Part shown: in pieces, positions 23,363 to 63,710 of the stretch
How the letters are laid out: every line of letters begins with the position of its first letter
Numbering within the stretch: position 1 is the first letter of the stretch
Assembly (NCBI GenBank): GCA_963767925.1
Contig: CAVYGB010000008.1
Coordinates: forward strand, 832,001 to 896,000
Reading direction: 5' to 3'
DNA from: an uncultured delta proteobacterium
Lineage (GTDB): Bacteria; Myxococcota_A; Polyangia; Fen-1088
Length of the DNA stretch: 64,000 bases
Notes under the pieces: generated by a model
Databases searched by the model: none
What the model was told of the DNA's origin: nothing
Seen by the model: the letters and a program-made list of their open reading frames with translations, nothing else
Program-made: the position numbers and the translations under genes

Positions 23363-23446
23363 GCGGTCGTGGCGGAACTGGTAGACGCGCCAGATTCAGG
23401 TTCTGGTGATCGAAAGATTGTGGGAGTTCGATTCTCCCCGACCGCA
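23363..23446 (+). tRNA. tRNA-Leu(CAG)
   Basis: GCGGTCG/CGACCGC acceptor stem, CCAGA-TTCAGGT-TCTGG anticodon arm, long variable arm, GTTCGA T-loop. Confidence 0.95.
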
Positions 23447-23685
23447 CCCAGATCCCTCTGAAATTTAAGCTCTTCTCGATAGCCGGAGAGAGCCTCGCTC
23501 ACGCTGGTCGACTGCTGGGGACAAGTGGGGACAAACGGCGCGCGCGCGTTTCTGGCCGTTTCCCGCCGTTTCCGCGCACGCGCCAGAATGGTGTTCTGGC
23601 GCGTTTTCTGACGCGACCTCTCGGCTGGTCGCGGTTGGTCGCTCACGGCGGCGGCCCGACTTCCGGGGTTTGAGTGGCCGTTCCG

Positions 23686-23965
23686 GTGGACCCAGACGTT
23701 CTCCAGCGCGAACGGAAAATCGAGCAGCCGGGGCGCGAGGTCTTCGAACACGAGATCGAGTGAGGGCTGCGGGGCGAACCACAGAGTTTGCCATACCGGG
23801 TCCTTGCCGCCCCGTATGGTGCTTCCCGTGGCAGTGGCTTCCATCGGTGCGAGCGGCCATTCGGTACGGTACTCATGCACTTGGCGCTTCGGACCCAGGC
23901 TGGAACCGAGCAAGACAGCTGCCTTTTCGAGATCCAGCGGCGATAGGTGCGAAGCCTTGAGGAAC
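23686..23965 (-). pseudogene. Internal fragment of a gene homologous to 53588-54337
   Basis: LGPKRQVHEYRTEWPLAP..WQTLWF.PQPSL..EDLAP.LLD.PFALENVWVH matches the 53588 protein. Confidence 0.8.
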
Positions 23966-24011
23966 TGGTCGTCGCGCTCGAAAGTAGCTTTGTTGTCACC
24001 CCGAGGCCCCC

Positions 24012-24785
24012 ATGATTCGTCCGACCTCTAGCCCCGCGCGAATCCGTCGGTTCCGGCCGAGAAGCGTGCGACATGTTTCCATCGCCGGTGTGGTCCACGA
24101 AGGAGTGACGCTCTTCCACCTGCTGGGGCGGCGGGCGCTTCTCGACGACAGCGCGGACATCGTCGCCGATCGCTTCATACGGGGAATCACCCACCTGCTA
24201 CGCAGCTTTCGTCCCGACTTTTTCTACGTTGGCGGCGGCATGTCTGAAGCTGCCGCGGTCCGCGCCGCCATCGATCGATGGGCCTCCGCGCCGATCGTCC
24301 TGTCCCGGGGGGGACGGTTCGTGGGGGAAGCGGGCGGCTTCAGCATCGCAGGACCGTCAGCGGTGATCTTCGACGTGGGCCAGACCGCCATCAAGGTCAG
24401 CCGCGGTGGTTTGCGCCGGGTTCACGATCGCCCGCCCGCGGGTCGGGAGCCCGATGGCTACGACGTGGCGGGCATATCCTTCATCAAAGAGGTCATCGCG
24501 TCCGAACTGAGAGCCGCGGCGGCGGGATCGCCGGCCGTGCTGGCGGTGCCCGGCGACGTGGGCGACGGTCTCACGCCTGGAATCTCGAACTACCGCTGGC
24601 AGGGTCGCGCGGACACGATAGGTGGGTTGCTTCCGACCGATGACCGCGATCGCGAAGTCCTGGTGCTCAACGATGCCGAGCTCGCCGCGGAATCGGCGCG
24701 GCTGGAGGTGAGTCGCGCGCTGGGAAAGCGCTGCTTCGTCTTGACGCTTGGACACGCGCCCGGCGGGGCCTTGCTGTCGCTATGA
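24012..24785 (+). CDS. ROK-like (ASKHA) protein, apparently circularly permuted
   Basis: DVGQTAIK, AVPG, LNDAELAA, LTLGHAPGG in the C-half; FRPD..YVGGG and GEAGG in the N-half. Confidence 0.7.
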   Translation: MIRPTSSPARIRRFRPRSVRHVSIAGVVHEGVTLFHLLGRRALLDDSADIVADRFIRGITHLLRSFRPDFFYVGGGMSEAAAVRAAIDRWASAPIVLSRGGRFVGEAGGFSIAGPSAVIFDVGQTAIKVSRGGLRRVHDRPPAGREPDGYDVAGISFIKEVIASELRAAAAGSPAVLAVPGDVGDGLTPGISNYRWQGRADTIGGLLPTDDRDREVLVLNDAELAAESARLEVSRALGKRCFVLTLGHAPGGALLSL

Positions 24786-25720
24786 GCACCACCAGCACCC
24801 CGGCGAACGGAGCCCCCGGCGGTTCCCGGCCCCTTTGCAGCGTGAGCGTCATCGCCTTGACCTGCAATCAGCCGGACGCGCTCAGGCTACTGCTCGCGGC
24901 GCTGGGCGAGCAGGTCGATCCGCCGCCATTCGAGGTGGTGGTCACCGACGATGGATCGAGCTGCGACAACGCCCGCATCGTGGCCCTGGCGGCGGCGGAA
25001 CGCGGTCTCGAAATCCGTTACGTGTGGCAGCCCGACCTGGGATTCCGAGCGGCCCGCGCCCGCAACAACGGCATCCGAGGGGCGCGCGGGGACCTGCTGG
25101 TCTTCCTCGACGGTGACATCGTCGTGCCTCCCACCTTCCTACGATCGCACTTCGTCCGGCACGACGGCAGCAAGAAGGTCGTCTGTGGCCGTCGTCGACA
25201 CGTACCTTCAGGGGCCTGCCATCTCGGTCGATACGACCAGTACCTGCTGCGCGCCCTCGCGGACAGGAGCCAGAGTGCCGATCCCGCTCAGGCCTACTGG
25301 AGCGAGGGGCCCCATCCCTGGATGGCGCTGATCAGCTTCGCCTTCAGCGCGCCCCGGGACAACGACTTGCTGTTCGACGAGGAGATGGAGGGATGGGGAA
25401 GCGAAGATCGCGAGCTCGCCCTGCGCCTTCATCAGCGGCACGGCTATGATTTCGTTCTGCCAAACGACCTGGACCCCGTCTTTCACCTCCTCACACCCGG
25501 CTTCACCGTCCACCACGAGAAAATCGTGAGTGGAATCAAGAACAAGCTCTACCTCGTCGCCAGACACGGCTTGGAGGCCGTCGCCCCGGCCCTCGAGCCG
25601 ATGCGCGCCTGGAGGGTCGACCCGACCACAGACCGGTGGACGTCAACCGGTCGGCGACGACCCGAGCCGCTCGACCAGCTCCTGGCCGAGGCCCGTGACT
25701 GGCTGGCCCGCCACGGGTGA
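24782..25720 (+). CDS. GT2 family glycosyltransferase
   Basis: VTDDGS, ARNNG, FLDGD, GWGSED; ATGA-coupled to the upstream gene. Confidence 0.9.
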   Translation: MSTTSTPANGAPGGSRPLCSVSVIALTCNQPDALRLLLAALGEQVDPPPFEVVVTDDGSSCDNARIVALAAAERGLEIRYVWQPDLGFRAARARNNGIRGARGDLLVFLDGDIVVPPTFLRSHFVRHDGSKKVVCGRRRHVPSGACHLGRYDQYLLRALADRSQSADPAQAYWSEGPHPWMALISFAFSAPRDNDLLFDEEMEGWGSEDRELALRLHQRHGYDFVLPNDLDPVFHLLTPGFTVHHEKIVSGIKNKLYLVARHGLEAVAPALEPMRAWRVDPTTDRWTSTGRRRPEPLDQLLAEARDWLARHG

Positions 25721-26099
25721 CGCCGCGGCGACCCGCTCCCGCTCCCGCTCCCGCGCCGACGGCGCTTTGCACGCCGGCCGCGGCCACCACCGATTGCCGG
25801 TGGCGGGCGTCCAGATGGCGCGCCCGTCCTCACCAACCAGATGGAGAGCGTCCGGGTGGCGTTCGGGCTGGGGCGCGAGGGGGGGCTCCGGCGGAGCGGG
25901 ATTCTGCGGGGCTTAGCGACCTCGCCCTGCTGGCCGATTGGGGTCCGTCGCTACGGATCTGATCGTTGCGCGTGCTGGGACTACTGGTGCGCTGGTCTGC
26001 CCGACGGGCCCGCTCCGCGGCGGGGAGGCCGACCTCCGCCGCCGCTGCGCGAACTGACCCGGCTGGCAAGCCAGCGGCGCCGGGGTTATGGTCCCCGTC

Positions 26100-26867
26100 A
26101 TGCCATGGCTCACGCTGTCTCTTCGTCGCGGCCTGGTCATCGGGTTGGGACCTGGGCGCTTTCACGCCCTGGTGTGTCTCGCGCTGCTGTGCCCGGTTCA
26201 CGCGTGTGCAGGGCCGGCAGAGCTGGCGGCGCCGAAGGGGACGGAGACGTCGGCAAAGACGCCGGTGAGTCCGCCCACCACGAACCCGGGAAAGGCCCGA
26301 CAGCTGGTAGAAGCGATCATCAAGGTCAGCCAGTTACCGCGGTTGGATCGGGTGAAAGCCGCCGAGATCCTCGGTACCCGGCTGGGTGCCCAGAGGAACG
26401 CCACCGAGTACCGCATGGAATGGTCCCTCGAGCCCACGGAGCTGATCGCCGAGGGGACCGCTGTGGGAGTCCGCCGCAAAGCCTGGACGCTCCTGGAGAT
26501 CGTGCCTCACCCCTCTCTCGAGCTGGCCTTCGAGGACTTCGTGCCCTACCTCCTCGACGCGAGCTACACGTTGGACGCGCTAAGAGTCCACCTCGTCCAC
26601 GACTCGGTGGCCACGAGTATCACGCGCATCAGACACGTGTTCCGGATCGAAGGCGGCGAATTGACCATCGAAGTACCGACCACGGTGCCGCCCGAGACCC
26701 CCGACCAGGATTCGAAAGCCACAACCGAAGGCTGGGATGCAGCGAAGGGCAGAAGCTCCAGCCGGAGTCAGGTGATGACCGTCTTTTTCAACAACGAGCT
26801 CGGCAGAAGCTGGCGAAACCCGCGCACGCTCCGGCAGTTCCGTGAGCCTCGGAAGGCCCCCAACTGA
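26100..26867 (+). CDS. Exported hypothetical protein (candidate immunity partner)
   Basis: Hydrophobic leader with Cys; close homolog at 40456, distant homolog at 53588. Confidence 0.7.
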   Translation: MPWLTLSLRRGLVIGLGPGRFHALVCLALLCPVHACAGPAELAAPKGTETSAKTPVSPPTTNPGKARQLVEAIIKVSQLPRLDRVKAAEILGTRLGAQRNATEYRMEWSLEPTELIAEGTAVGVRRKAWTLLEIVPHPSLELAFEDFVPYLLDASYTLDALRVHLVHDSVATSITRIRHVFRIEGGELTIEVPTTVPPETPDQDSKATTEGWDAAKGRSSSRSQVMTVFFNNELGRSWRNPRTLRQFREPRKAPN

Positions 26868-26871
26868 CCGG

Positions 26872-27771
26872 TTACGGGTTGGAGCCGGGGTTGGCCTGGC
26901 GGTCGTCCCACTCTTTGCTGAGCTGCTGAGCAGCGAGCTGCTCCTTCGTGATGTAGGTGCCATCCGGGTTGATTCCGGCGGGCTCGCGCGACATGACCTC
27001 GGTCATCTCGGCCTTGGCCTGCTCTTCGGAGATCTCGCCACTCTTGTACCGCTCGTAGATGGCGATGTACTGGTCATCGAACGTCCCGCGGATGCCGATG
27101 TCCGGCCCGTCCTCGGTCTCGCCGTCGGTGTTCATGATCTCGTCGCGGGCGCGGGCGTTGTCGAAGGCGGCAGCACCCTCGTGCTCCATCGCCGGCTGCA
27201 CGTTCTTCGAGACGTATTCGCCCTTGGTGTCGGCGTCCACCCGCTCAGGGAAGGGCTTGGCTGCATGACCGATCTCGTGGGCCAGCAGAGAGGCGAGGTC
27301 GTGGCCGCCCTTGGCCAGGTCCTGCTCGTCGATGAAGATCCTCATCTTGTTCGGTTCGGCTTTCGATCCACTGCCGTACGGGACGACTTCGATCTCCCAG
27401 CCGTTGGCTTTTGCCTCGGCCCACTGCTGTCGCAGGGTCGGGCTGCGGTTGATGACGTCATCAATCTTTGCGCCCAGACCTGTCTTGACCGGCGGCGGCT
27501 CCGCGCTGGCCGGGGGTGCTGACGGCGGAGCTTCGACCTCCAGGGTGGTCGGCGTCTCGGGCGTGGGCTTCGCCGGCTGCGGGTTTCCACCACCACCGCC
27601 GCCGCCGAAGTAGGGTTGGTTGGTGGGGGGTGGGTCTACGCCGTCGAACGGCCAGATCGAGTCCGGGTCCGGCGCCTCGAGTGGCGCCTGCTCGATCACT
27701 TCTATGGAGACGAAGCTGCCATCTACCGGGAGTGGGGTGCCTTGACCAGTGATGGAGTTGATACCTGACAT
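26872..27771 (-). CDS. HEXXH zinc-metallopeptidase-like protein with Pro-rich N-terminus
   Basis: LAHEIGHA plus downstream EHEG; AGGAGG RBS. Confidence 0.75.
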   Translation of the reverse strand: MSGINSITGQGTPLPVDGSFVSIEVIEQAPLEAPDPDSIWPFDGVDPPPTNQPYFGGGGGGGNPQPAKPTPETPTTLEVEAPPSAPPASAEPPPVKTGLGAKIDDVINRSPTLRQQWAEAKANGWEIEVVPYGSGSKAEPNKMRIFIDEQDLAKGGHDLASLLAHEIGHAAKPFPERVDADTKGEYVSKNVQPAMEHEGAAAFDNARARDEIMNTDGETEDGPDIGIRGTFDDQYIAIYERYKSGEISEEQAKAEMTEVMSREPAGINPDGTYITKEQLAAQQLSKEWDDRQANPGSNP

Positions 27772-28764
27772 GCGAAGTCCTCCTGGATTCAACGGTCCAT
27801 TTCATGGCGAGCGAGGCCGGCTCGGCGAGAGTCAGGACATGTCCGTCGGCCACGGCTGGAGCTTGCTATGGGTTGCGCAGCAGTTTTGCAGCGCAACAAG
27901 CCACAGATACCATGGTCGGCTGCCATGGTGAAGAGAGACGCGCTCGCCTTCGTTGGAGGTTTTTCACGAGCCCCCACACGGCCGCGCGCAGGGCACGCAT
28001 CAGTTGGCTTACCTCGTGTGTCAGGCCCTGGCGAGGGTGGGCCGGTACGCCGCCTCGACCTCTATCCGGACAGCTGCGAAGCCACGGCGCCCTCGTGTTG
28101 CCGTCGAGCCCGCCAGGGCGCCGGCATCGGAGGCCTCGCCGCTGGCCGTGCACGAGGCGCAGGCGCACGTCGTGCCCGTCATCGCTGCCCGCTGGGCTGG
28201 CATCCCGGAGGTGGTTACCCACGGCGAGACCGGCTTCCTCCTCGACACGCGCGTCGCTCCGCTGCAGCCTCACGTGGCGACCACGACGTTTGGCGAGACC
28301 GACCGAACCCATTTCGATGCCACCTGCTCCGCCGCCGAGAAGGCCTGGGCCGGCCCAGCACCGTCTCGTCCGCTGGTCCACCTCGACGACGTGCTCGCGG
28401 CTCAGGCCGCCGGGACGCTGGAGCCAGGACACCGTTTGCGCATGGCTGACGAGCAGCCTCTGCCGTTGCTGACCCGAGGTTCCTACTCCGAGTCGTCCGC
28501 TCAGCTCTCCTGCGTGCTCGGTCTCTTCCAGAGCGGCGAGGTCGTCTCCGTTGTGGACGCGGCTGCCTCGGCGGCTGCCTTCGCGCGCGCCGCGACCCCT
28601 GCCTTTAGCGCCGGCCTGAAGGTGATCCACCCCGCGGCGAGATCGTGAGCCACCCGGGGTGGCGGGCGCCGTAGGGACGGCGGCGGGATCGTGATCCACC
28701 CCGGCCGAAGAGGGAGACCGGGACGGGACGCGGCAGGGAGACGGTAGTAGTGGTGGCGCCTGCG

Positions 28765-29205
28765 ATGAAGCAGGGAGCCCCGCGGAAGAGGTGCACGGAG
28801 TGCCGGCAGTGGTACACGCCGTGTGTACGGTCGGCCGATCGGCAGCGGACGTGCGGCGGGGGCGCGTGCCGGGCGCGGCGGCGACGCCGACTCGGACGGC
28901 AACGGCGGTGGCAGGACGTGCAGAGCGCGCGGGTGGCCGAGCGCGAGCGACAGCGACGGTGGCGGGCCGAGCGCCGCGCGCGAGCGATGGAGGAGAAGGA
29001 GGGGCCCCGGCCGCCATCTGAGGCCACCTGTCACGCGCCGGCTTCGGCCTCCATCAGCGGGGATTTGCGGGACAAAGTGCGCCAGTCCGTGGACATGGCG
29101 TTCGACTTGTCACGCGCCGCCTTCCTGCGCCTGGTGCCCAAAATTCTCGGGGATTTCATGCGATCCGCGGGGAAATCTGGGACAAAAAGTGGGCCGGGAG
29201 CGTGA
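28765..29205 (+). CDS. Small Cys-motif (Zn-finger-like) basic protein
   Basis: CTECRQWY...QRTCGGGAC followed by Arg-rich helix. Confidence 0.6.
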   Translation: MKQGAPRKRCTECRQWYTPCVRSADRQRTCGGGACRARRRRRLGRQRRWQDVQSARVAERERQRRWRAERRARAMEEKEGPRPPSEATCHAPASASISGDLRDKVRQSVDMAFDLSRAAFLRLVPKILGDFMRSAGKSGTKSGPGA

Positions 29206-29326
29206 CTGTCACGCGCCGGCTTTTCGTCGTATGCCCGCGGGACCATTGAGGATTCACCCGCGATCCTGGACAGGCTGTCACGCTCCGACCTTCGCCAACG
29301 CGGTCGTGACGTGGTTTGTGGAGGCC

Positions 29327-30280
29327 ATGGCAGCCGTCGTGGCCCCCGAAGAGCGCGCGGTCGCCCTCACCGCGCTCGGCGAGACCCACGGGCGCTTGCG
29401 CCTGCTGGACGCGGGGGCTGTCCGCCAGATGCGCGAGTCGCTCGAGCGCCACGGACAGCTGATGGCGGTCGCCGCGTACCGCCCCGGCGATGGCGGTGGC
29501 GGCCCCCTCGAGGTCGTGGACGGCTTCAAGCGGGTGCATGCCGCTCGTGGGCTCGGCTGGGGGGAGCTGCGGGTCCGCGTGCTGCCGGTGGACGCGGTGG
29601 AGGCGAAGGTGGCGATGGGGGTGCTCAATCACGGGCGCGGGCTGTCCGAGCTCGAGGAGGCGTGGCTGGTGCGCGCGCTGCACCGTGAGGACGCGCTGAC
29701 GCAGCCCCAGATCGGGCGGCTGCTGGGGCGGCACAAGAGCTGGGTGAGCCGGCGGTTGCTGCTGGCCGAGGGGCTGGACGAGGCGGTGCAGGCGGACGTC
29801 CGGCTGGGCCTCGTCGCCGCGAGCACGGCGACGGCGGTGGCGCGGTTGCCCCGGTGCAACCAGCTCGCGGCGGCGGAGGCGGTGATGCGCAGGGGGCTCA
29901 CCAGGCACCAGACCGAGCGCCTCATCACCGAGGTGCTGGCGCGGCCAGCGGCCGAGCGCGAGCTGGCCCTGTGCGAATCCGCCGAGCGCTTCCCCCTGCT
30001 CGGCGATGGCCCGGCGACCGGCAGACGCCACGGCAGCGAGCGGACGCCCGCGCAGTCGTTGATGGCGGACATCGGGACCCTGGCGCGGATCGCGGCCCGC
30101 GTGCAGGCGCGGCTGTGGGAGCGTCCGCTGTCGGCGCTGGGCGAGCCGGCCGCGCGCCTGGTCGCCGATGGGCTCGCGGGGCTCGATCCGGTGCTCACCG
30201 CGCTCAGCCGGACGATCGCGCGCGCCGTGACCGCAGACCCACGGGCCCAGGGACATGTGGAAGACGCGCCCCGAGCTTGA
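29327..30280 (+). CDS. ParB/Srx N-terminal domain protein with HTH
   Basis: SLERHGQL, VVDGFKRV.AA, LTQPQIGRLLGRHKSWVSRRL; GGAGG RBS. Confidence 0.85.
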   Translation: MAAVVAPEERAVALTALGETHGRLRLLDAGAVRQMRESLERHGQLMAVAAYRPGDGGGGPLEVVDGFKRVHAARGLGWGELRVRVLPVDAVEAKVAMGVLNHGRGLSELEEAWLVRALHREDALTQPQIGRLLGRHKSWVSRRLLLAEGLDEAVQADVRLGLVAASTATAVARLPRCNQLAAAEAVMRRGLTRHQTERLITEVLARPAAERELALCESAERFPLLGDGPATGRRHGSERTPAQSLMADIGTLARIAARVQARLWERPLSALGEPAARLVADGLAGLDPVLTALSRTIARAVTADPRAQGHVEDAPRA

Positions 30281-32650: not shown

Positions 32651-33293
32651 AGCGCCCCCCGCCCCGGGGCGCCCTCCCCACCTCGCAGATAGCAGCCCGA
32701 TCCGCTCCCCGGCCGCGCATCCCCAGCGCGGCTGGGCGCCGCGCATTGGGCGTGCGCGAGCCGTGGGGCCCGCCACCGCCCCCGGGCGCCGCCGCCTCAG
32801 GTGGATCACGATCCCGCCGCCCTGGCGTCGCCCCCTGCAACCGCGGGTGGATCACCCTCGCTGCCCGGAGTGGATCACATCTAACCCGCCGCTGAAGCCC
32901 CTGCCGAGTTCGGCGGCGAGACTGATCTGGCGATCTCCTCGCTCTTGCTCGTCCGCCTGCTGAACGCCGGCGTGTTGGAGCTCGATTGCGAGCCGACTTG
33001 GGCCTCTTCGCCGTGCGCGCGCCCCTTTGCTTCCTGTGGTCAGCTAGATCAGGCTGTCCCAGCTAGCCCCAGACAGCCCGCCATGTGGCGGTTCCGGCTG
33101 CCGGTCGGTGCTCGATTCGCCGCCGGCGTCCGGCCTGGCCGGTGAACCGGCCTTCCGGTGCACCGTGAGGACTCTCGACCGAGCGCTGGCAGGGCAAGTC
33201 GGTGACGGTGCGGGACATCATCTGCCGTACGCTGGTCGTGGGCCCGAATGGGCCGTTGTTCTCGTCCGAGCCAACGTAGCGGTTCGACTCGAT

Positions 33294-33919: not shown

Positions 33920-34025
33920 GCGTACCTAGGAGTGTACCGCCAATCCCAAGAAACGTCGCGTTGGACGTCACTCGGCCGGGACCGCAGGGAGTGGATAACT
34001 TGAAGATCGGCCAGGATCGAGACGG

Positions 34026-55248: not shown

Positions 55249-55361
55249 CAGGCTCTCCTGCTCAGGTCTGGTGGGACGTACGCTGTTTCGGTTGGAGCTT
55301 GCGTGAGTTGCGCGGTAGTTTTGCGGCGCAACCAGCCACAGATACCATGGTCGGCATGCCC

Positions 55362-56987: not shown

Positions 56988-57098
56988 GCCTGCCCGCCGT
57001 GAGCGGGCCGCTTTTCGGCTCTCCTGACATCTTCGTGGGCGCACGGCTCAGAGGCGGTAGGCTGCTGGACGTCAACTACAAACACCCGCGGGCGCCAA

Positions 57099-57938
57099 TT
57101 ACATCTCCCCAGTCGCCTCCGGGGTAATTGTCGTCGCATGATCGGTAGTTGTCGTAGTTGTCGCTGGGCCTGAGTCACCTCTCTTGCGCGCGGCTTCGTC
57201 GCGGTGGCTGAAGCCGGTCATCTCGATGATGACGGCGTGGTGGATGAGACGGTCGATGGCCGCGGCAGTGGTCATGGGATCCTTGAAAATTCGGATCCAG
57301 TCGCTGAAGACCAGATTGCTGGTGATGATGACGCTCTTGCGCTCGTACCGTTCGGCCAGGAAGGTGAAGAGCACCTCCATCTCGTCCCGGCTCTGCTGGA
57401 CGTAGCCGATGTCGTCCAGGATGACTGCGTGATAGATGTCCAGCGTCCCCAGCTCACGCTCGAGGCGCAGGTCGCGCTTGGCCGCGAGCAGCCTCTGGAC
57501 GAGCGCAAAGGTCGGCGTGAACAGGACGCGATACCCGCGGCGGATGAGCTCGTGTCCGATAGCCGCGACGACGTGGGTCTTGCCCCGGCCCGGCAGCCCG
57601 AAAGCCAGGAGGTTTTCTCCCCGCTCCACGAAGCCGCCTTCGCAGAGATCCGGCAGCTGCTTCGCCACTTTCTGCGGCAGTCGGCCTCGGTTCAGGGTCG
57701 CCAGCGTCTTCTCCGACGGCAGGTCCGAGTCGCGGAGAGCGCGGTCGACGCGTCGGACTCTGCGCTCCTCGACCTCGAGTTCGGCCAGGTGGTGCAGGTA
57801 TTGGCCGAAGGTCCACCCCTCTCGCGTTGCCTTCGCGGCCACCTCCTCGGCGTACCGACCGAAGGCCGGTAACTTCAGGGCGCGCATGAGCACGAGGAGC
57901 GCATCGAGGGCGCATACCTTGCCGTCAGGCGCGGTCAT
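57099..57938 (-). CDS. istB: IS21 helper ATPase
   Basis: GLPGRGKTH, ILDDIGY, ITSN, AAIDRL. Confidence 0.9.
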   Translation of the reverse strand: MTAPDGKVCALDALLVLMRALKLPAFGRYAEEVAAKATREGWTFGQYLHHLAELEVEERRVRRVDRALRDSDLPSEKTLATLNRGRLPQKVAKQLPDLCEGGFVERGENLLAFGLPGRGKTHVVAAIGHELIRRGYRVLFTPTFALVQRLLAAKRDLRLERELGTLDIYHAVILDDIGYVQQSRDEMEVLFTFLAERYERKSVIITSNLVFSDWIRIFKDPMTTAAAIDRLIHHAVIIEMTGFSHRDEAARKRGDSGPATTTTTTDHATTITPEATGEM

Positions 57939-58211
57939 GACGCCACCTCCGCAAGGAGCGTGTCGTAGGCGGCGAGATCCACGGTCGGCCTGTCGAGCAC
58001 CGGCACCACGCACGCGGCGGTGCTTGCCGCCTGCGCGCATCTTCCCTTCACAGTATCCGCCGTCACGGCCGCCCCTTCAGACAGCAGCGACGCGATCGCT
58101 TGCTCCACGTCGGCCTCCATGGTGCTCGCGGCCAGGTGGAGGATGCGCAGGTACTCGACGTCTCCTTTGGTCCCCGACTTTGCGGCTTGGATCGCGTCGT
58201 AAGCCTGCCGG
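57935..58211 (-). pseudogene. istA 3' remnant
   Basis: EYLRILHLAA, DLAAYD.LL; ATGA-coupled to istB. Confidence 0.7.
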
Positions 58212-59479
58212 TGCACATTTCGGCGAACGTGATCACCGAGATCGGTCCATCGTGATCATGTCGGAGCGAAGCGACGCTGTCTGGTCGCGTTAGTACCTAT
58301 TTCGATAGGCCGGCCGCGCGCCACGCGATGATTCCGCAGACAAAATGAAGCATGGCGAAGTACGTGTCCTCGCGAATTTCCCACCGGATGAGAATGCGTC
58401 GGAATCTGTTCATCCAGCCGTGGGTCCTCTCGACGACCCATCGTCGTGCCTTGACGCCGGGCTTGCGCTCGAGTTCCTTCTTCTCTTCGCCCCGGCTGCG
58501 CACGTGAAGTGTGAACCCGTGGGCAGCTCCGATAGCCCGCGGCTCCTTGTAGTCGAATGCCTTGTCCAGGCAGAGGCCTTGGGGAGAAGTCTTCGTCGGC
58601 CGCGGGCGAGTCACTGGGATGCTGTCGATCGTTTCCGGCATCAATTTGTGGTCGTTCCGATTCGCCCCGTCAACCGCCAGACCGAGGGGCACGCCCGCGC
58701 CATCGACCAGGAGGCTGCGTTTGGTACCGTCCTTGGCGCGATCGGTTGGGTTTGGTCCGGTTTTTTTCCCCCCCGAGGGGCGCCTTCGTCATGGCCCCAT
58801 CCATCGACATCCAACTCCAGTCGATGCCCTTCGCCTCATCGTAGGCCAGAAGCCCCTGGCGCCAGAACTCGTGAAACACTCCCGCGTCCAGCCACTCCCG
58901 GAATCGTCGGTACGCCGACGCGCAGGAGCAGATGCCCGTCGCGTCCAGAGCGTTCCACCGGCAACCGGTTCGGAGCACGAAAAGAATCGCGGCCATGGCA
59001 TTTCGATCTGGCACCCGAGGCCGGTGGCATCCGAGCGGGTGCACGGGGCGCGGGGGAAGCAGCGGCTCCAGCTTGGCCCAGAGGTCGTCGGACAGCTTCC
59101 AACTGGGCGCCTTGGCGGTGCGTTTCATGCCCCTACAAGCGGGCCAGATCGTTGATCGCGCAATTTTTTGACCGTTTCGACAGGGCGGTCTACGTTGCCT
59201 TCACGTCCTAACGAAATAGGTTCTTAGTGGTTATTCGGTCTCGGTCTCCTTCTCGTTCTTTCGCCTCGAAGGCCCCTTTAGCACGAGCCGGTGGGCGTTG
59301 TGCAGGATGCGGTCGAGGATGGCGTCTGCGAGGGTCTGATCGGCCAGGTGGGCGTGCCAGGTTTTCGGCGGGAGTTGGCTGGTCATGATCGTGGAGCGAT
59401 TGCCGTACCGGTCTTCGAGGATTTCGAAGAAGTCACGCCTCTCCTGCTCGCCGGGCGGGGTGAGGCCCCAGTCGTCGAT
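58212..59479 (-). mobile_element. Second IS21 remnant: terminal repeats (58212-58289) and istB 3' fragment (59231-59479)
   Basis: TG end with CGTGATCA repeats; DDWG...EILEDRY...TSQLP...DAILDR. Confidence 0.7.
58293..59223 (-). mobile_element. IS5-family element with split transposase (58670-59128, 58297-58692)
   Basis: IRs GTACCTATTTCGATAGG/CCTAACGAAATAGGTTC, TTA TSD, TGC.W..L, RW.VER...W; G/A homopolymer runs at the ORF junction. Confidence 0.88.
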
Positions 59480-59622
59480 TTATGTGGAGCTCCACATAAA
59501 TCGACTCATGTTGAGCCCCTGCTTATGTGGAGCTGCGGTTGAGTTCTCCTCGGCGGTAGGCGCCCACGACTTCACATAAATCGATCGGTACGCTCCTGGC
59601 GGTCCATCCAAGGAGGCCGCCC

Positions 59623-60846
59623 ATGCTGACCGAGTTGTATCCACGATTTCATGCTCGTTTCTCGTCGCTGCCGCTACTGGGACCCCATGTAGAGAGGTTC
59701 GTCAGTTGGCTTCACGCGGAAGGGTATCCTCCTCGGCAGATTGTGCTACGCGTTCGACGGATGCCGCGGGTCGATGCCCGCCTACGACGGCGAGGTGTTG
59801 TCCGGTTCGACGAGCTCTCTCGAGGTCAGCTCTTGGAGCTGGCACCACGGAAAGCACAGGACGATACCTATCTCTCGGCACTTGTAAGATCCCCCGGGCA
59901 TTACGTCGAGGAGCAACGCTCGGTCGAGCGTCCCGCGCTGACACGAGGCCAACGGCTCGTCGAGAAGTACCGGATCTACCTGGGCAGCGTGCGTGGCCTT
60001 GCCGACGCCACGATTACTGGCCATGCGTCGACGGCATCCGAGGTGTTGGCCTTCGTGGACTACGAGAGACGTCCGGCCAGCCTGCACCGGCTTGATTCCC
60101 GCAGGATCGAGTCCTTCATCAAAGCAGTCGCAGCCCGTCTCAGCCGCGAGACCCTTCAACACATCATCGCCCGTGTCCGTTCTTTTCTTCGCTTTCTCGT
60201 CGGTCAAGGCCAGATCGCTGAGGACCTCGATACGACGATCGATACGCCTCGCGTGTACCGAGGCGAGCGCCTGCCGCGGTCGATCCCGTGGAAGGTCGTC
60301 CAGTCGTTTCTCGCCGCGATCGATCGGTCCACGCCGAAGGGTCGACGCGACTACGCCATGTTTCTGCTGATCACCACGTATGGTCTGCGCACAAGCGAGG
60401 TCGCGGCGCTGCGACTGGACGACATCGAGTGGCGCGCAGGCCGGCTCCGCGTCCCCCGACCGAAGATGCAGGCCCCAATCATGTTGCCCCTGACCAAGGA
60501 AGTGGGCGCCGCCCTTGCCGCCTACCTGCGCCGGGGGCGACCCGAGCTTTCGTGCCGACAGGTCTTCGTGCGGGTCCGATCTCCCGCTGGCCCACTCGAA
60601 CGCACGGGCGTGAGCAACGCATTTCAGTGGTGGTGCCGGCGTGCTGGCCTCCCGATTCCGCACCAGGGTCCCCATTGTCTGCGCCACTCACTCGCCGTTC
60701 ATCTGCTTCGCCAAGGCACCTCGCTCAAGGCGATCGGAGACCTGCTTGGTCATCGCAGCAGCGAGAGCACCTGCGTCTATCTCCGGCTGCATGTCGAGGA
60801 TCTCCGCGACGTCGCGCTGGATATTCCGTCGGAGGCGCGCACATGA
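59623..60846 (+). CDS. RitA-like tyrosine recombinase
   Basis: RDYAM...YGLR..E, HCLRHS.A, LLGH, T.VY; duplicated N-terminal domain. Confidence 0.85.
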   Translation: MLTELYPRFHARFSSLPLLGPHVERFVSWLHAEGYPPRQIVLRVRRMPRVDARLRRRGVVRFDELSRGQLLELAPRKAQDDTYLSALVRSPGHYVEEQRSVERPALTRGQRLVEKYRIYLGSVRGLADATITGHASTASEVLAFVDYERRPASLHRLDSRRIESFIKAVAARLSRETLQHIIARVRSFLRFLVGQGQIAEDLDTTIDTPRVYRGERLPRSIPWKVVQSFLAAIDRSTPKGRRDYAMFLLITTYGLRTSEVAALRLDDIEWRAGRLRVPRPKMQAPIMLPLTKEVGAALAAYLRRGRPELSCRQVFVRVRSPAGPLERTGVSNAFQWWCRRAGLPIPHQGPHCLRHSLAVHLLRQGTSLKAIGDLLGHRSSESTCVYLRLHVEDLRDVALDIPSEART

Positions 60847-61020
60847 GCTCGGTCCTCCGCTCCGCACTTGGCGCAAAGATCAACTCTTACCTCGAATTCA
60901 AGAAAGCTCTCGGGCGCCGCTTCGCCAACGAGACTAGGGTGCTCGTGCATCTCGATGGTTACCTCGCACAGCAGCGGCCTTCCAAGTTGAGCCCCGATTC
61001 GTTTGCTGGGTGGAGTTCGG
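60843..61020 (+). pseudogene. Truncated RitB-like recombinase N-terminus
   Basis: ATGA-coupled; YL.FKKALG..F......L..LD.YL. Confidence 0.65.
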
Positions 61021-61179
61021 TGTTGCGGCGGCCGAAGGTTCAGCTCCGCTCCGCGCCGGTGTGGAATCTGCGCCCTCGCCGATGGTCAAATGCGGCGCGG
61101 TTGCAGTCTGCTCATCATGGCCGCAGACGGCCACGACGAGCAGACCGCCCGCTTGAGACTGCTCGTCCGGTTGATCCGT

Positions 61180-61800
61180 GGAGGGGGTAGCCTTGGCCTT
61201 GCTGGTCGCCTGGGAAGCCAAGGCGGCCCGGCGCCTGTAGAAGGTCGCCGTCGACAGCCCCAGGGCGCCGCATATGGAGCCGACGCTGACGCCGGGGACA
61301 GGTTCCGCCTTCACGGTCTCGTCCATCAGGACTTTTCGCCGTCGGGCTTGGGCAGTTCCAACCCCAGCAGCGAAGCCATTTTTTTTTGGATATCCACCAG
61401 CATCTCCGCGCGCTCCGCGCGAGCAGTGAGGGCGGTGACCTCGCGGCGCAGTCGACGATTCTCAATCTCTTCCGGCGTCGGTGGCGTGACCTTGGGTCCG
61501 CGCTTTCTCGGAGCGAGACCAGCCATTCCCCGCTGCTCCATCTCGCGGCGCCAGGTCGAAAGGTGCGACGAATACAGCCCCGCCCGGCGCAGCAGTGCTC
61601 CCAACTCGCCGGGCTTCGTGCACGCCGCCGCCTGACGGAGAACCCCTCGCTTGTACTCGGCGGTGAACCTCCGCCGGGTTGCCTTCGACACGACCTCGGT
61701 ATCATGTGCTAACACGCTGCTCATCTCTACCCGTTCCTGACTCGCCCTCGACATTAAATTCGGCTTCGGCGTCGTCTCAGGTCACGTTGGCAGATAGGGG
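61180..61800 (-). mobile_element. IS3-like remnant (orfA 61326-61754, truncated orfB)
   Basis: RRRFTAEYK, LLRR.GLYSSHL..WR, DIQKK; orfB C.ALG.S.AT.YR. Confidence 0.75.
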
Positions 61801-61825
61801 CCGGGGACTCCGTCGAGCGGCTCGG

Positions 61826-62100
61826 TCAGGCGCCGGGGCGCACGGACAGGGCGTGGTGGAAGACGCTGGCCGGGTCGCAGCGCCCCTTCACCGCCCGCAG
61901 GCGAGCGCAGTTGCCCTGGTAGTAGAACTGGTGCCAGGGCACGCCGGAGCTGTTCCAGGCCGGGTCGGTGAGATCTCCATCAGGGTGGTTGATCTCGGCG
62001 CCGTCGTAGGCCGGCCCGGGGACGGGCGCGCCGCCGGTGCTGGCGAAGACGTCCCGGTAGGTGGTGCAGGCCCAGTCGATGTATTCGCGTCCTCGGCGGG
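61826..62100 (-). pseudogene. Berberine-bridge (BBE) domain C-terminal fragment of an FAD oxidoreductase
   Basis: IN.PD.DL..P.W......YY.GN..RL..VK...DP..VF. Confidence 0.65.
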
Positions 62101-62169
62101 GTCGATCCAGCCATCGACGATGCGGGGATTCTTCTCGTCGCGGGTAGCGACTGAATGGCCGAGCACCGC

Positions 62170-62685
62170 TCATTTGCGCCTCGTGGCCGCGCGCAGCCCG
62201 GCTGCGGCAGTGTCTGCAAGCAGAAAGAGCCGGTTCGGCGTCGCCGGGAACTGCACGAATCCGAACGTTCGATAGAACGCTATCGCCGCTTCGTCCTTCG
62301 CGTCGACGACAATCGCGAGAGCGGCGACGGACTCGGCCGCAGCGAGGACGCGGGTGATGGCATCGGCGATCATTAATTCGCCCAGGCCCTGGCCGCGGCC
62401 ACGCACGTGACGGGCGAGGCGGCCGATGAGCGCCGCCGGGAGGTCCTTGTACTTGGGGAGCTTGCGCGTGAGGTTGGGCGGAAGGTCGTCGAGCGCCAGA
62501 GTGAACATGCTCAGGCTGTAGAAACCGACGATCCCCTGCTCGTCCAGAGCGACGAAGACGCGGGCGATGTTGCGGCGCTCGTCCTGGCCGGCTCGGGCAC
62601 GGAACCATGTGTCCAGGGCCGGCGCGCCGCACTCGAAGGTGCTCCGGTCGTGCCTGCTGCGCAGCGGCTCGAAGCGGATATTCAC
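62170..62685 (-). CDS. GNAT toxin (TacT/AtaT-like)
   Basis: HDR..F.CG...LD, PA.LIGRLA, RGQGLG, VDAKDE.A..FY. Confidence 0.9.
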   Translation of the reverse strand: MNIRFEPLRSRHDRSTFECGAPALDTWFRARAGQDERRNIARVFVALDEQGIVGFYSLSMFTLALDDLPPNLTRKLPKYKDLPAALIGRLARHVRGRGQGLGELMIADAITRVLAAAESVAALAIVVDAKDEAAIAFYRTFGFVQFPATPNRLFLLADTAAAGLRAATRRK

Positions 62686-62697
62686 AGGACCGGCAGT

Positions 62698-62976
62698 CTA
62701 ATCGGAGAACGCGCGGTGGCGGCGCAAGGCGCGGACGAGCCGGTCGGTGGGGGGAGGGGGGTTCGCCACGGCGGCCAGGAATGTGTCGCGGTCTGCGCCA
62801 CGCAGGACCATGCGCTCGTGCTCTTCGAGGATCCGGCGGGCGCCCTCGTAAGCGAGGTCGCCCGCGCCGAGGCCCGAGATAGCGCTCGCCCGCTGGATGA
62901 CCTTCCGCACTGACGGAGCCACCCGCAGCTCCATCCGCTCCGTCTTTTGCTCGCGAGTTCGCCGTGCCGTGGCCAT
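62698..62976 (-). CDS. DUF1778 RHH antitoxin (TacA-like)
   Basis: K.ERMELR...I.RA, F.AA..NPP.P...L. Confidence 0.88.
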   Translation of the reverse strand: MATARRTREQKTERMELRVAPSVRKVIQRASAISGLGAGDLAYEGARRILEEHERMVLRGADRDTFLAAVANPPPPTDRLVRALRRHRAFSD

Positions 62977-63285
62977 GAAATAGTCCCACGCACAGTGTAC
63001 GGTGATTCTCCGTACAAGTCCAACTGCTGGCGCGCTCGACGACGTCGACAACATTACAAATTTCGTCGACACCGTCGCCTCGCTCCACTTCCACGCGGCC
63101 TCGACTCCTTTCGAAGGCCGGTGGGTTCATTAGGAACGCATGCCAGCCCGACGCAGAACACTTGTCCCCGCCCAACCCCGCGACATAGCAAGCGTTCTCG
63201 ATGGCTGGGGACGAACTCTGTAAGAGCCTCTCTTGCAACATAAGGTAACTACTCACGATTTCGCCACCCCGCCCAGGTTAAGGTC

Positions 63286-63710
63286 CTGTGGCTCACGCAG
63301 ACGAGCACGGACAAGATCGGCAGGATCACGCCCGCGGGGGACGTGACCGAGTTCGCGCTTCCGTGCACCGGCTGCGGGGCTGGTGGCCATCGCGAAAGGT
63401 CCAGACGGCAACATCTGGTTCTCGGAGCGATTCGCGAAGAAGGTCCGCCGGATCACAGTCGGCGGCACTATCCAGGAGTTCCCCCTGGCGACGGGCCGGT
63501 CCCGGTGATCTGGTCGCCGGGCCGGACGGCAAGCTCTGGCTCGCGGAGTTCAAGGCCAGCAAGATCGGTCGCATCACGCTGAGCGGCAGCATCACCGAGT
63601 ACCCGGTCCCCACGCCGGATAGCAGCCCGCTGAAAATGGTTGTGGCCCCGACAGGAGACTGTGGTTCACGCAGACCACCGCGAGGAGGATCGGCCGTTTC
63701 GCGCCATGAG
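63286..63710 (+). pseudogene. Vgb (virginiamycin B lyase)-like beta-propeller fragment, frameshifted
   Basis: LW.T....KIGRITP.G.VTEF, GPDG..W repeats in different frames. Confidence 0.75.

Follow-up and report, generated by a model that had tools for sequence, protein, structure and literature searches.

We analysed a 64,000-nt stretch of DNA, hereafter the window, in which housekeeping genes for L25, PRPP synthetase, AtpB, YchF and Amt lie upstream of a tRNA-Leu(CAG) gene. This is the single tRNA-Leu(CAG) called by both ARAGORN and Rfam. A second ARAGORN call, a 90-nt "tRNA-Asp" at 36716-36805, received no support from Rfam. The first-pass annotation had claimed that a ~58-bp 3' part of the tRNA recurs at 34426, 44872 and 53245, and the repeat search and self-blastn agree on this. 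The three displaced tRNA tails are 96-98% identical, with E values of 1e-21 to 1e-23 within the 64 kb window.

23363-23448, plus strand: tRNA-Leu(CAG), intact (ARAGORN; Rfam RF00005, 54.8 bits)
34426-34483, plus strand: att copy 2 (repeat search, self-blastn); 98.4% over 63 nt with the start at 34422 or 34426, E 5e-23 (repeat family D6; self-blastn)
44872-44929, plus strand: att copy 3 (repeat search, self-blastn); 44872-44933 gives 98.4% over 62 nt, E 2e-22 (self-blastn)
53245-53302, plus strand: att copy 4 (repeat search, self-blastn), one T-to-G change in the anticodon stem; 96.8% to the copy at 44872 (self-blastn)
63273-63289, plus strand: fifth att, truncated, ~17 nt of the anticodon stem-loop part left (self-blastn)

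The att sequence corresponds to the tRNA segment 23390-23447 (~58 nt), which runs from the anticodon stem through the 3' terminus. With the anticodon at tRNA position 35, the anticodon stem begins at position 28, which is window base 23390. The repeat copies begin at the equivalent of this base, and the third copy at that of 23392, in agreement with the earlier claim that the repeats start at the anticodon stem. The copy at 63273 had been described as degenerate, but it is instead truncated, with 14 of the aligned nucleotides identical and the similarity lost beyond them. Successive att copies are spaced by 11036, 10444 and 8375 nt, and the four att-bounded cassettes that had been proposed were recovered with sizes of 11.0, 10.4, 8.4 and 10.0 kb.

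34484-44871: cassette 2 (10.4 kb), with int-xis nearest the tRNA and a Y far end typical of the family
34676-35896, minus strand: tyrosine integrase (Pfam Phage_int_SAM_3, Phage_int_M, Phage_integrase; PHROG integrase)
35577-36149, minus strand: HTH_17 (excisionase-like) ORF, overlapping the integrase start in another reading frame (Pfam, tblastn)
37534-38278, plus strand: UPF0175 (37534-37806) and DUF3368 (37799-38278) pair (Pfam), matching PADLOC candidate system PDC-S70
38355-42146: second copy of a 3.8 kb module (Pfam, NCBIfam, self-blastn, blastp), with ROK-like (38375-39169), GT2 (39166-40104), partner (40456-41223) and HEXXH (41228-42130, minus strand) genes
42430-44591, minus strand: FGE-sulfatase-domain protein (42430-43308) and 427-aa protein of an unnamed family (43308-44591) (Pfam)
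44757-44871: Y far end, with a GATCCCCCAC pair and two short palindromes

By its integrase, HTH_17 ORF and conserved far end, cassette 2 is the sole complete element of the four. The integrase 3' end lies 192 nt from att copy 2, and the database protein P0001 starts at 35863. When the window was searched with the integrase by tblastn, one full copy (34679-35863), a 36-residue remnant (45015-45122) and a weak match to an Xer-like recombinase that adjoins no att were obtained, bearing out the claim that a single att-adjacent integrase is intact.

23449-34425: cassette 1 (11.0 kb), without integrase (self-blastn; tblastn with the integrase gave no match here)
23671-23913, minus strand: partner (immunity-like) gene fragment, 77% to cassette 4 partner residues 82-162 (blastp)
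23968-27787: cassette 1 copy of the 3.8 kb module, 92.7% to the cassette 2 copy, with ROK-like (24012-24785, plus), GT2 (24782-25720, plus), partner (26088-26867, plus) and HEXXH (26872-27792, minus) genes
27853-28603, resuming at 32887-33028, plus strand: GT4 pseudogene (self-blastn; Pfam)
28603-32897, plus strand: IS21-family element, terminal inverted repeats 28603-28700 and 32897-32800 (Pfam, NCBIfam, PHROGs, self-blastn), with ParB-like (28823-30280), IstA (30255-31880) and IstB (~31862-32650) ORFs
33294-33919, minus strand: PIN-domain toxin (33294-33695; Pfam) with a putative antitoxin, a 78-aa ORF (33683-33919; ORF list) upstream of and overlapping it
34028-34425: non-coding X right end (repeat families D5, D9, D14, D20; self-blastn)
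44930-53244: cassette 3 (8.4 kb; Pfam, self-blastn, tblastn, PHROGs), with integrase remnant (45015-45122, minus), PPTase (45121-46125), PepSY_TM (46846-47352), GT4 (47667-48764), N-truncated carbamoyltransferase (49405-50709), IstB (51387-52304) and X end (52849-53244)
53303-63272: cassette 4 (10.0 kb), no att-adjacent integrase (Pfam, NCBIfam, PHROGs, self-blastn, blastp), with partner (53588-54337, minus), HEXXH (54334-55248, minus) and GT4 (55299-56987, plus) on the left
57099-58040, minus strand: IstB, followed by IS5 ORFs (58297-59128, minus), an IstB-like fragment (59231-59479, minus) and IS3 HTH fragments (60934-61754, minus)
59623-60846, plus strand: Xer-like recombinase, a different recombinase from the integrase
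62170-63272: right part of cassette 4, with GNAT toxin (62170-62685, minus), TacA (62698-63072, minus) and X end (63154-63272)

Cassettes 1 and 4 have homologous left ends, and the X end of cassette 1 is 93% identical to 52849-53244 in cassette 3, with the last ~116 nt being 88-90% identical to 63154-63269. We regard cassettes 1 and 4 as integrase-less relatives of each other, and we propose that cassette 3, in which the integrase is reduced to its final 36 codons (tblastn), lost it by deletion. The GT4 pseudogene of cassette 1 is interrupted by the IS and carries two internal deletions compared with the cassette 4 copy. A copy related to the IS21-family element is present in locus L041. Fragments of IS21, IS5 and IS3 elements and broken genes litter the array.

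A homologue search found 161 relatives of the integrase. We retrieved 79 of their loci, nearly all in Myxococcota/Polyangia MAGs, and scanned 60 for tRNA genes; the family appears almost restricted to Myxococcota MAGs. In 37 of the 60 a tRNA starts 20-170 nt beyond the integrase 3' end (tRNA-Leu in 13 of the 37), while 3 further loci left too little room to judge. Among the 58 of 60 loci with sufficient downstream sequence, direct repeats of the tRNA part of 41-54 nt bound islands of 2.6-9.6 kb, including 5.7 kb in L022, 5.9 kb in L029, 7.6 kb in L044, 5.3 kb in L011 and 2.6 kb in L039. Arrays were also detected: L066 and L014 each have three copies, and L007 has two tRNA-Leu fragments 9.6 kb apart and lacks a whole tRNA over 21 kb. 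Islands in L007 (82% identity, 172 nt) and L011 (93%, 73 nt) retain the cassette 2 Y end at their far ends. None of the 79 related loci has the left or X ends of cassettes 1 and 4, barring ~43 weakly similar nt in L007, so their reading as element termini comes from this window. The cargo families of the window were absent within 10 kb of the related integrases.

The motif GATCCCCCAC occurs five times in the window, against 0.25 expected, and is confined to the arms of cassettes 2 and 3; a motif search of the window found none in the X ends. Of the 79 related loci, 24 contain it, mostly paired at the integrase 3' end; L007 and L066 have it at their far ends as well. The codons of the pair are AGT-GGG-GGA-TCT-GGT-GGG-GGA-TCA. 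Since only two of these eight end in G or C, while the gene has a GC3 of 0.86, a constraint on the DNA itself is suggested. The GATCCCCCAC pairs on both arms of cassette 2 are candidate arm-type sites.

A comparison of the tRNA-Leu(CAG) site across relatives had been recommended. Upstream of the tRNA, the LPG-synthase-like and methyltransferase genes have counterparts in L001, L012 and L040 (49-53% and 29-34% identical, respectively), and these three MAGs differ in the contents of the site. In L001 and L012 the site is occupied by an integrase and different cargo, while the nearly empty site of L040 has a 98-residue integrase remnant only, followed by ABC-F, rpoZ and sigma-70 genes. Because an exact search with 43 nt of the att gave no match in 185,579 species genomes, a close relative was not available for comparison.

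The recurring cargo comprises three HEXXH genes, three signal-peptide partners and one partner fragment, two GT2 genes and three GT4 genes, one of them broken; each HEXXH protein is accompanied by a signal-peptide partner. The families listed initially were thus retained for HEXXH/partner, GT2 and GT4, but the toxin-antitoxin modules fall into three distinct families (PIN, UPF0175/DUF3368 and TacA/GNAT), and the ROK assignment is a weak NCBIfam match (E 1e-3). The HEXXH domain gave 461 representative matches, and in the 20 that we scanned, 13 of which were the longest and picked deliberately, it is fused to VgrG in seven, to the Gp5 trimerisation domain only in one, to Rhs in three and to PAAR or PAAR-like domains in three. 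The residues H166, E167, H170 and E199 are invariant or nearly so, and a fold search with the domain gave no significant match, the best being an M48-family peptidase at E 0.03. Based on the domain fusions of the relatives and on gene adjacency, the HEXXH proteins may be stand-alone T6SS-type zinc-peptidase-like effectors and the partners secreted immunity-like proteins. Mobile T6SS effector-immunity modules on integrase-bearing islands have reportedly been found in work on Vibrio cholerae Aux3 and on acquired immunity in Bacteroidales. The present pairs, similarly, lie on small att-bounded elements, but their roles are putative and the window has no T6SS structural gene.

Exchange of cargo between the cassettes had also been claimed. 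The 3.8 kb module is common to the otherwise unrelated cassettes 1 and 2 (self-blastn), and, compared with cassette 4, the HEXXH gene of cassette 1 is an allelic replacement. Such features show past recombination but not an active shuffling system; current mobility and ongoing exchange are suppositions.

Based on these observations, we consider it likely that the 39.8 kb downstream of tRNA-Leu(CAG) is a composite island formed by tandem accretion of small integrative elements at one att. The stacking proposed at the outset is supported by the tRNA-adjoining integrase family, the islands and arrays elsewhere, the shared Y end and the variable syntenic site. A circular incoming element would bring the ~58-nt tRNA segment in its attP, and the tyrosine integrase, with its N-terminal arm-binding region, would recombine it with the tRNA gene, rebuilding the whole tRNA and leaving the displaced copy at the far end. 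Later elements could use either the tRNA or any of its displaced copies, giving a head-to-tail stack, and homologous recombination between cassettes would have shifted at least one module (3.8 kb). Cassettes 1, 3 and 4, if still moving, would need the integrase in trans or would have to move jointly with cassette 2. The repeats, the genes of the array, the tRNA association of the integrase family and the islands and arrays elsewhere are observed, and we infer from them the sequence of events, excision today, mobilisation in trans and an effector-immunity function.

An old fixed locus that expanded for the most part through duplication in place and unequal crossing-over at the att or X-end repeats, rather than through independent integrations, with the cassette 2 integrase as a leftover, seems unlikely to us. 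The segments shared between cassettes are all 79-93% identical, as similar-age duplications would be, cassettes 1 and 4 are alike in whole architecture, and the array shows heavy IS decay and a truncated last att. Against this, cassettes 2 and 3 have just the att-proximal ~190 nt in common and differ in cargo, cassette 2 has both termini typical of the family in other genomes, the syntenic site of relatives is differently filled or almost empty, and GC3 is 0.70-0.86 in most array ORFs versus 0.90-0.92 in the three nearest upstream core genes. It is still less probable that an assembler joined strain variants with one island each at tRNA-Leu through these repeats. The source is evidently a metagenome-type assembly, the integrase of the window having one entry in the protein database, on a 3.3 Mb contig, and X end plus att form a ~460-nt repeat at 93% that could mislead; however, the 3.3 Mb contig suggests long reads, for which repeats of 58-460 nt are short, the cassettes are mosaics of one another instead of clean alternatives (self-blastn), and the independent assemblies L007, L066 and L014 contain arrays too. 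A phage satellite or tycheposon-type array, dependent on a helper phage and its own replication, is very improbable: the elements are small, tRNA-targeted and integrase-carrying, and Prim-Pol/PriCT (L045) and weak Rep_1 matches (L005, L050) lie near related integrases, but Pfam, NCBIfam and PHROGs scans turned up no primase, Rep, capsid or terminase gene in any cassette, the best identity of the cassette 2 integrase among 50,697 phage records is at most 29%, and the integrase points outward, towards the att, contrary to the tycheposon definition in bioRxiv 10.1101/2020.12.28.424599.

Tandem accretion at one att has known counterparts. Both PMC5704250 and PMC3146451 describe accretion with decayed cis-mobilizable elements, the former in a review of streptococcal ICE/IME accretion with CIMEs that cites the ICESt1 work. 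As presented in PMC5704250 and as seen here, elements of the same specificity follow one another head to tail from the 3' end of a target gene, each junction being marked by an att copy; one member has an integrase, and the others have lost theirs but retain attL and attR. Pfam, NCBIfam and PHROGs scans of the array recognised no capsid, terminase, replication, conjugation or mobilisation (relaxase, oriT) genes, as noted before, the nearest mobility-type matches being IS21 IstB ATPases and the ParB-like ORF inside an IS. The elements are thus not ICEs or IMEs; the uncultured myxobacterial host and the integrase family also differ. The ssrA islands of Dehalococcoides, according to PMC3146451, are likewise tandem islands downstream of one small-RNA gene, bounded by direct repeats of the 3' part of that gene; their integration module adjoins attL on the reverse strand, and some islands without it, as here, were proposed to be cis-mobilizable or fixed. 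They have a serine recombinase, a 20 bp tmRNA repeat and reductive dehalogenase cargo (PMC3146451), whereas a tyrosine integrase, 58 nt of tRNA-Leu and conflict/glycan genes are found here. Prochlorococcus tycheposons, as presented in bioRxiv 10.1101/2020.12.28.424599, share ~10 kb cargo elements at tRNA genes, partial tRNAs and broken integrases dispersed in islands, and newer arrivals displacing older ones outward, but their definition calls for a recombinase specific to the lineage, replication hallmark genes in common and an integrase that faces inward, all of which the array lacks. The satellite-like or tycheposon assignment made at first is not supported.

With its outer att truncated, cassette 4 is probably fixed, and the array may be largely fossil, since all cassettes but the second are devoid of an integrase and carry IS21, IS5 and IS3 fragments and broken genes. 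We propose that the cargo consists of conflict and surface genes, namely effectors with partners, glycosyltransferases and toxin-antitoxin pairs. Repeated integration at a tRNA site is itself well known, while the integrase family looks previously undescribed. The array is not a tycheposon, satellite or integron, but a case of the known phenomenon of tandem accretion in a new integrase family.

ARAGORN predicted a single tRNA-Leu(CAG) gene at 23363-23448 (+), and Rfam confirmed it and reported no second tRNA. A 90-nt tRNA-Asp(GTC) that ARAGORN also called within cassette 2 (36716-36805) is absent from Rfam at the gathering threshold and is probably a false call. Four att-bounded cassettes are stacked 3' of the tRNA-Leu gene, and the repeats of its 3' part (att copies) were located with a repeat finder and self-blastn.

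34422/34426-34483 (+), att copy 2, 98.4% over 63 nt, E 5e-23
44872-44933 (+), att copy 3, 98.4% over 62 nt
53245-53302 (+), att copy 4

The four att copies are 96-98% identical and all in direct orientation, one at each junction, with spacings of 11036, 10444 and 8375 nt, and they are joined by one truncated copy. The first-pass annotation had described this fifth repeat, at 63273, as degenerate; a copy is present there, and with only ~17 nt left it is better named truncated. The anticodon is located at tRNA position 35 and its five-base stem begins at position 28, corresponding to window base 23390, and the repeat copies start at the equivalent of this base (23392 for the third copy). An integrase class with crossover in the anticodon loop and a repeat running from the anticodon stem to the 3' end is recognised, reportedly set out by Williams in 2002. 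The region upstream of the tRNA consists entirely of housekeeping genes, among them those for ribosomal protein L25, PRPP synthetase, ATP synthase a, YchF and an ammonium transporter, and GC3 is 0.90-0.92 in the three genes nearest to the tRNA versus 0.70-0.86 in most ORFs of the array. Since housekeeping genes lie upstream and GC3 drops in the array, the tRNA marks the edge of foreign DNA. The right chromosomal border was not anchored by synteny; tblastx of 63289-64000 matched only repeat-like segments in L064 and weakly in L031, both fetched loci with integrase relatives (L numbers). A gene with Vgb_lyase-like beta-propeller repeats, below the Pfam cut-off, lies directly 3' of the truncated att (63288-63965, +); it appears broken by frame changes, and similar repeats occur in L064 only.

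The contents of the four cassettes are as follows, with GT2 and GT4 denoting glycosyltransferases, HEXXH a putative zinc-peptidase-like effector, and X and Y ends the non-coding cassette ends distal to the tRNA.

23449-34425, cassette 1, GT4 carrying two internal deletions and interrupted by an IS21-family element of 4.3 kb that has terminal inverted repeats
34484-44871, cassette 2, from the integrase end through the Y end
34676-35896 (-), cassette 2, tyrosine integrase of 406 codons, 3' end 192 nt from att copy 2
Cassette 2, after the HTH_17 ORF, an unknown ORF and then a UPF0175/DUF3368 pair (PADLOC candidate PDC-S70)
Cassette 2, 3.8 kb module, ROK-like gene (weak match), GT2, signal-peptide protein (the partner) and convergent HEXXH protein
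Cassette 2, distal part, FGE-sulfatase-domain gene, 427-aa unknown protein and ~115-nt non-coding Y end
44930-53244, cassette 3, att-proximal ~190 nt as in cassette 2, with the last 36 integrase codons left
Cassette 3, remainder, PPTase, PepSY_TM fragment, GT4, N-truncated carbamoyltransferase, IstB gene and ~400-nt non-coding X end
53303-63272, cassette 4, middle part made of IS21, IS5 and IS3 fragments and an Xer-like recombinase

When the integrase was used in tblastn, no trace of it was found in cassettes 1 and 4. Cassettes 1 and 3 (the latter with its 36-residue integrase remnant) have att at both ends and no recombination genes, as in a cis-mobilizable element (CIME), and cassette 4 is a partial match, its outer att being truncated. 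Cassettes 1 and 4 have a common layout of left end, partner/HEXXH locus, GT4, toxin-antitoxin pair and X end, and their left ends, which begin directly at att, are 79-85% identical. No convincing ORF was found in either of two copies of the X end, and the UPF0175/DUF3368 pair was the sole PADLOC match.

The IS21-family element of cassette 1 (28603-32897) carries an extra 485-aa ParB-like ORF (HTH_ParB, Noc-like) before IstA/IstB, and a related IS21 copy with a ParB-like gene is present in another Myxococcota MAG (L041:2475-5660), with 45% amino acid and 68-70% nucleotide identity. Amid the IS fragments of cassette 4, a perfect 32-nt palindrome (59474-59505) is positioned just 5' of the intact-looking Xer-like tyrosine recombinase (59623-60846, +), which scores 145 bits with the XerD model, below the cut-off, and has a 110-aa N-terminal extension. 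An IstB-like fragment near the palindrome (59229-59479) has relatives of 75-80% nucleotide identity in L059 and L014.

A search for the exact 43-nt att in species-representative genomes gave no matches, providing no close relative or empty same-species site for comparison, and we therefore used the integrase as the query. The integrase had 161 relatives in a large, mostly metagenomic protein set, the best with 80% identity, and identities to phage and plasmid records were at most 29% and 27%, respectively, matching no known element. A profile search yielded 79 loci, nearly all from Myxococcota/Polyangia MAGs, and 60 of these were scanned for tRNAs, leaving out distant Spirochaetia, Bacteroidales and similar matches and two very short contigs. 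A tRNA gene begins 20-170 nt past the integrase 3' end in 37 of the 60 scanned loci, and three more have no sequence remaining there. The 37 targets are tRNA-Gly (11), Leu-TAG (7), Leu-CAG (6), Ala, Cys and Val (3 each), Arg (2), Thr (1) and Pro (1), and the closest relatives with a readable target mostly use tRNA-Leu, with tRNA-Ala in two (L002 and L008). Islands bounded by a direct repeat of a tRNA part, and further arrays, were delimited among these loci.

L022, island of 5.7 kb, 51-nt repeat
L029, island of 5.9 kb, 44-nt repeat
L044, island of 7.6 kb, 45-nt repeat
L011, island of 5.3 kb, 48-nt repeat
L039, island of 2.6 kb, 53-nt repeat
L007, array, integrase enclosed by two tRNA-Leu fragments that lie 9.6 kb from each other, the 21 kb containing no whole tRNA
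L066, array, three copies of the tRNA part
L014, array, three copies of the tRNA part

Two loci show the Y end of cassette 2 (44757-44871) again beside their far att copy, L007 with 82% over 172 nt and L011 with 93% over 73 nt, the latter despite a different target, tRNA-Leu(TAG). Because the Y end recurs in these two loci, cassette 2 possesses both element termini typical of the family. When the array was compared with the loci by blastn, no counterpart was found for the cassette 1 and 4 left ends or for the X ends, except for ~43 weakly similar nt in L007. The stacking of att-bounded cassettes on one tRNA-Leu, proposed by the first-pass annotation, is real and well delimited, and its interpretation there is correct at the core. 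A literature search by title and abstract retrieved no myxobacterial tandem tRNA islands, which is not proof that the family is unpublished.

Other arrangements were observed in individual loci. A second integrase, only ~30% identical, is located across the same tRNA in two loci (L011:6970-7785 and L023:11437-12579), and in L011 the tRNA 5' part is repeated 7 kb away (6029-6069 and 13092-13132); one tRNA gene may thus serve two integrase families, each using a different half. Two inverted tRNA-Leu(CAG)-like sequences, each with an integrase 3' remnant, are present in L062 (4095-4448 and 6317-6676) as a 240-nt inverted repeat at 90%, suggesting an inversion between two att-bearing ends. In L024 an insertion of ~1.7 kb interrupts the family integrase (9166-9819 and 11486-12037), separating residue 219 from residue 217, a further indication that these elements are attacked by IS.

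The chromosomal site itself could be followed in distant relatives. Homologues of the LPG-synthase-like and methyltransferase genes that lie 5' of the tRNA (49-53% and 29-34% identity) stand beside tRNA-Leu(CAG) in L001, L012 and L040. At this site, L001 and L012 have an integrase of the same family with other cargo, which in L012 comprises an SNF2 helicase, a Rad52-like protein and a PD-(D/E)XK nuclease, and in L040 a remnant of 98 residues is all that is left of the integrase, with ABC-F, rpoZ and sigma-70 genes coming after it within about 1 kb. Since the contents of the three loci differ, the site is variably occupied, and this speaks against a fixed ancestral arrangement, the genomes compared being only distant relatives.

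An excisionase-like HTH_17 ORF (35577-36149, -) overlaps the integrase start by ~90 codons in a second frame, and an HTH_17 ORF in overlapping frame was matched in 22 of the 79 loci, while in L011 (4479-5957) and in the database protein P0002 HTH_17 and integrase form one in-frame fusion of ~490 aa. Five occurrences of the 10-mer GATCCCCCAC were counted in the window, where shuffles predict 0.25, at the following positions.

34716 and 34728 (34716-34737), pair 12 nt apart inside the integrase 3' end
44757 and 44769 (44757-44778), pair in the Y end
44998-45007, single copy in the cassette 3 integrase remnant

Of the 79 loci, 24 contain the 10-mer, in most cases as this pair at the integrase 3' end, and L007 and L066 also have it close to the far att copy; it is absent from the X ends. 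On the coding strand the pair reads AGT-GGG-GGA-TCT-GGT-GGG-GGA-TCA, within an SGGSGGGS run of the integrase C-terminal tail, and these eight codons are unusual for this genome, only two of them ending in G or C, compared with a GC3 of 0.86 for the gene. The unusual codons in the tail point to a constraint that would act on the DNA of the pair and not solely on the protein. We infer that the pairs are candidate arm-type integrase binding sites on both arms, and the 3' end of the integrase gene may itself double as a binding site.

Among the systems known to us, tandem accretion provides the closest likeness. Streptococcal elements stack at the same site and then decay to att-bounded, recombination-less units, described in the available text as tandem accretion and CIMEs (PMC5704250), and the same pattern is described, in the text available, for tandem ssrA islands of Dehalococcoides (PMC3146451). 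The att copy at every junction, the recombinase in one member and the recombinase-less att-bounded members of that description are all present here. The first-pass annotation had proposed a tycheposon- or satellite-like logic, and neither part stood. Tycheposons, as described in the available text of the preprint, likewise pile up at tRNAs, where partial tRNAs and broken integrases accompany them, but their definition rests on replication hallmark genes and on a lineage-specific recombinase that faces inward (bioRxiv 10.1101/2020.12.28.424599); here the cassettes have no replication gene and the integrase is transcribed outward, towards att. With respect to satellites, PHROGs detected no capsid, small terminase, packaging-redirection gene or replication module; the families matched in the array were integrase, ParB-like, IstB/DnaC-like, glycosyltransferase, carbamoyltransferase, acetyltransferase and two of unknown function, and the FGE-sulfatase-domain ORF matched a family annotated 'kinase'. 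The earlier observation that capsid and replication genes are missing was borne out, as capsid, terminase, primase and Rep genes were found in none of the four cassettes. No relaxase, oriT or conjugation module was found in the array ORFs with Pfam, NCBIfam and PHROGs, and the array is therefore not an ICE or IME. An integron can be dismissed, since the integron-integrase model gave 38 bits against a cut-off of 265 and the cassettes are 8-11 kb long and bounded by tRNA-derived att copies.

Tandem accretion at tRNA genes is a textbook phenomenon, of which the array is a new family-level example from a phylum that has been little studied. The conserved far end, the candidate arm sites in the integrase tail and the effector/immunity-like cargo are its neat features.

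The HEXXH proteins form part of this cargo. All three have an unstructured Gly/Pro-rich N-terminal part followed by a ~200-residue domain; those of cassettes 1 and 2 are 89% identical, and that of cassette 4 is 36-40% identical to the others. HEXXH and partner genes are adjacent in all three pairs, the partners being 91% and 40-42% identical, with a fourth copy as a fragment. A full HMMER search gave 461 representative HEXXH relatives, and 10 of the 150 relatives listed are 824-1550 residues long, with a C-terminal match in nine; in the tenth, the database protein P0267, the match is made up of 12 short internal stretches and is probably spurious. When 20 relatives, including the 13 longest chosen on purpose, were scanned for domains, VgrG was found in seven, only the Gp5 trimerisation domain in one, Rhs in three, PAAR or PAAR-like in three and no Pfam domain in five; sub-threshold matches to the putative metallopeptidase PF20573 occurred in four of the 20. 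LDL-receptor repeats in one of the 20 are probably a spurious match. H166, E167, H170 and E199 are invariant or nearly so across 35 sequences. The AlphaFold model of the HEXXH protein (pLDDT 82.8) is confident for residues 90-295, and Foldseek against the PDB found nothing at E <= 0.001, the best matches being zinc peptidases at E >= 0.03, and the HEXXH profile found nothing below E 0.36 among PDB sequences. The Atlas gave only leads below 0.9 for this protein (DUF6782 in 31% of one cluster; HopF2-like, 0.86). As read from sequence, the partners carry a hydrophobic stretch at the N-terminus and a Cys whose surroundings resemble a lipobox; they have only five relatives in 5.8 billion clusters. 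We read the HEXXH proteins and partners as predicted stand-alone T6SS-type effectors with secreted immunity proteins; no T6SS genes were seen within the 64-kb window.

The 427-aa protein of cassette 2 (43308-44591, -) belongs to an unnamed family of ~420-aa members with 49 relatives, of which two distant ones contain DUF4157; its nearest named clusters are from Myxococcota, and the Atlas places it in unnamed Myxococcota clusters. Its gene overlaps the FGE-sulfatase-domain gene (42430-43308, -) stop to start, and the two may be another conflict pair.

Self-blastn revealed that the 3.8 kb module is 92.7% identical between cassettes 1 and 2 and that the remainder of the two is unrelated. The right border of the module is the HEXXH start codon, and past it cassette 1 is homologous to cassette 4 again, at the HEXXH genes' own offset. 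Because homology resumes at the same offset, the HEXXH gene of cassette 1 sits where cassette 4 has its own, 36%-identical gene, and a fragment of a cassette-4-type partner gene persists at the cassette 1 left end. These borders are good evidence that the effector locus was replaced by recombination at least once, an event that, at 7% divergence, is not recent. Differences between the module copies at first, second and third codon positions number 13/9/32 in the ROK-like gene and 14/13/28 in GT2, thus mainly third positions, compared with an even spread in the partner (10/13/15) and HEXXH (20/12/18) genes, as would be expected from relaxed or diversifying selection on a toxin/immunity pair. 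The first-pass annotation had the cassettes apparently exchanging cargo; past recombination at the effector locus holds, and of a dedicated shuffling mechanism there is no sign.

It also seems unlikely that cassettes 1 and 4 are a dedicated non-autonomous family moved in trans by a cassette-2-type integrase, making the tRNA-Leu an integron-style platform on which the cells of a myxobacterial population swap glycan genes and T6SS effector/immunity alleles with one another. The points behind a non-autonomous family are the common left end of cassettes 1 and 4, starting at att, and the conserved non-coding X end, present also in cassette 3.

Among the related elements, MmeI-like and Eco57I-like restriction-modification enzymes are found in L022 and L066, Abi_C in L011 and AbiE in L014, and others carry PIN, trypsin-like peptidase, rhomboid protease and GNAT genes. 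L003 contains a dense defence cluster (1564-8838) of HamA, McrBC, AAA_5 ATPase, HEPN protein, GmrSD_N and a methylase-like ORF beside a 65% identical integrase, where the adjoining tRNA-Leu fragment is only 29 nt. Because replication-type genes lie near the integrase in some relatives (Prim-Pol in L045; in L005 and L050, Rep_1 matches that stay below the curated cut-off), the family is not uniformly 'minimal'. In a tblastn search of 25 window proteins against the 79 loci, no HEXXH, partner, ROK-like, GT2 or GT4 cargo was found near the related integrases.

Myxococcota are social and predatory bacteria, and their kin discrimination relies on polymorphic toxins; to our knowledge, almost nothing is described of how uncultured Polyangia acquire such toxins. 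The tRNA-targeting integrase family ferries restriction-modification, abortive-infection, toxin-antitoxin and effector/immunity-like genes in packets of 2.6-10 kb that pile up at tRNA genes. The compact integrase/att pair might become a genetic tool for myxobacteria, and the locus and its relatives provide a concrete, testable vehicle for the turnover of conflict genes in Myxococcota.
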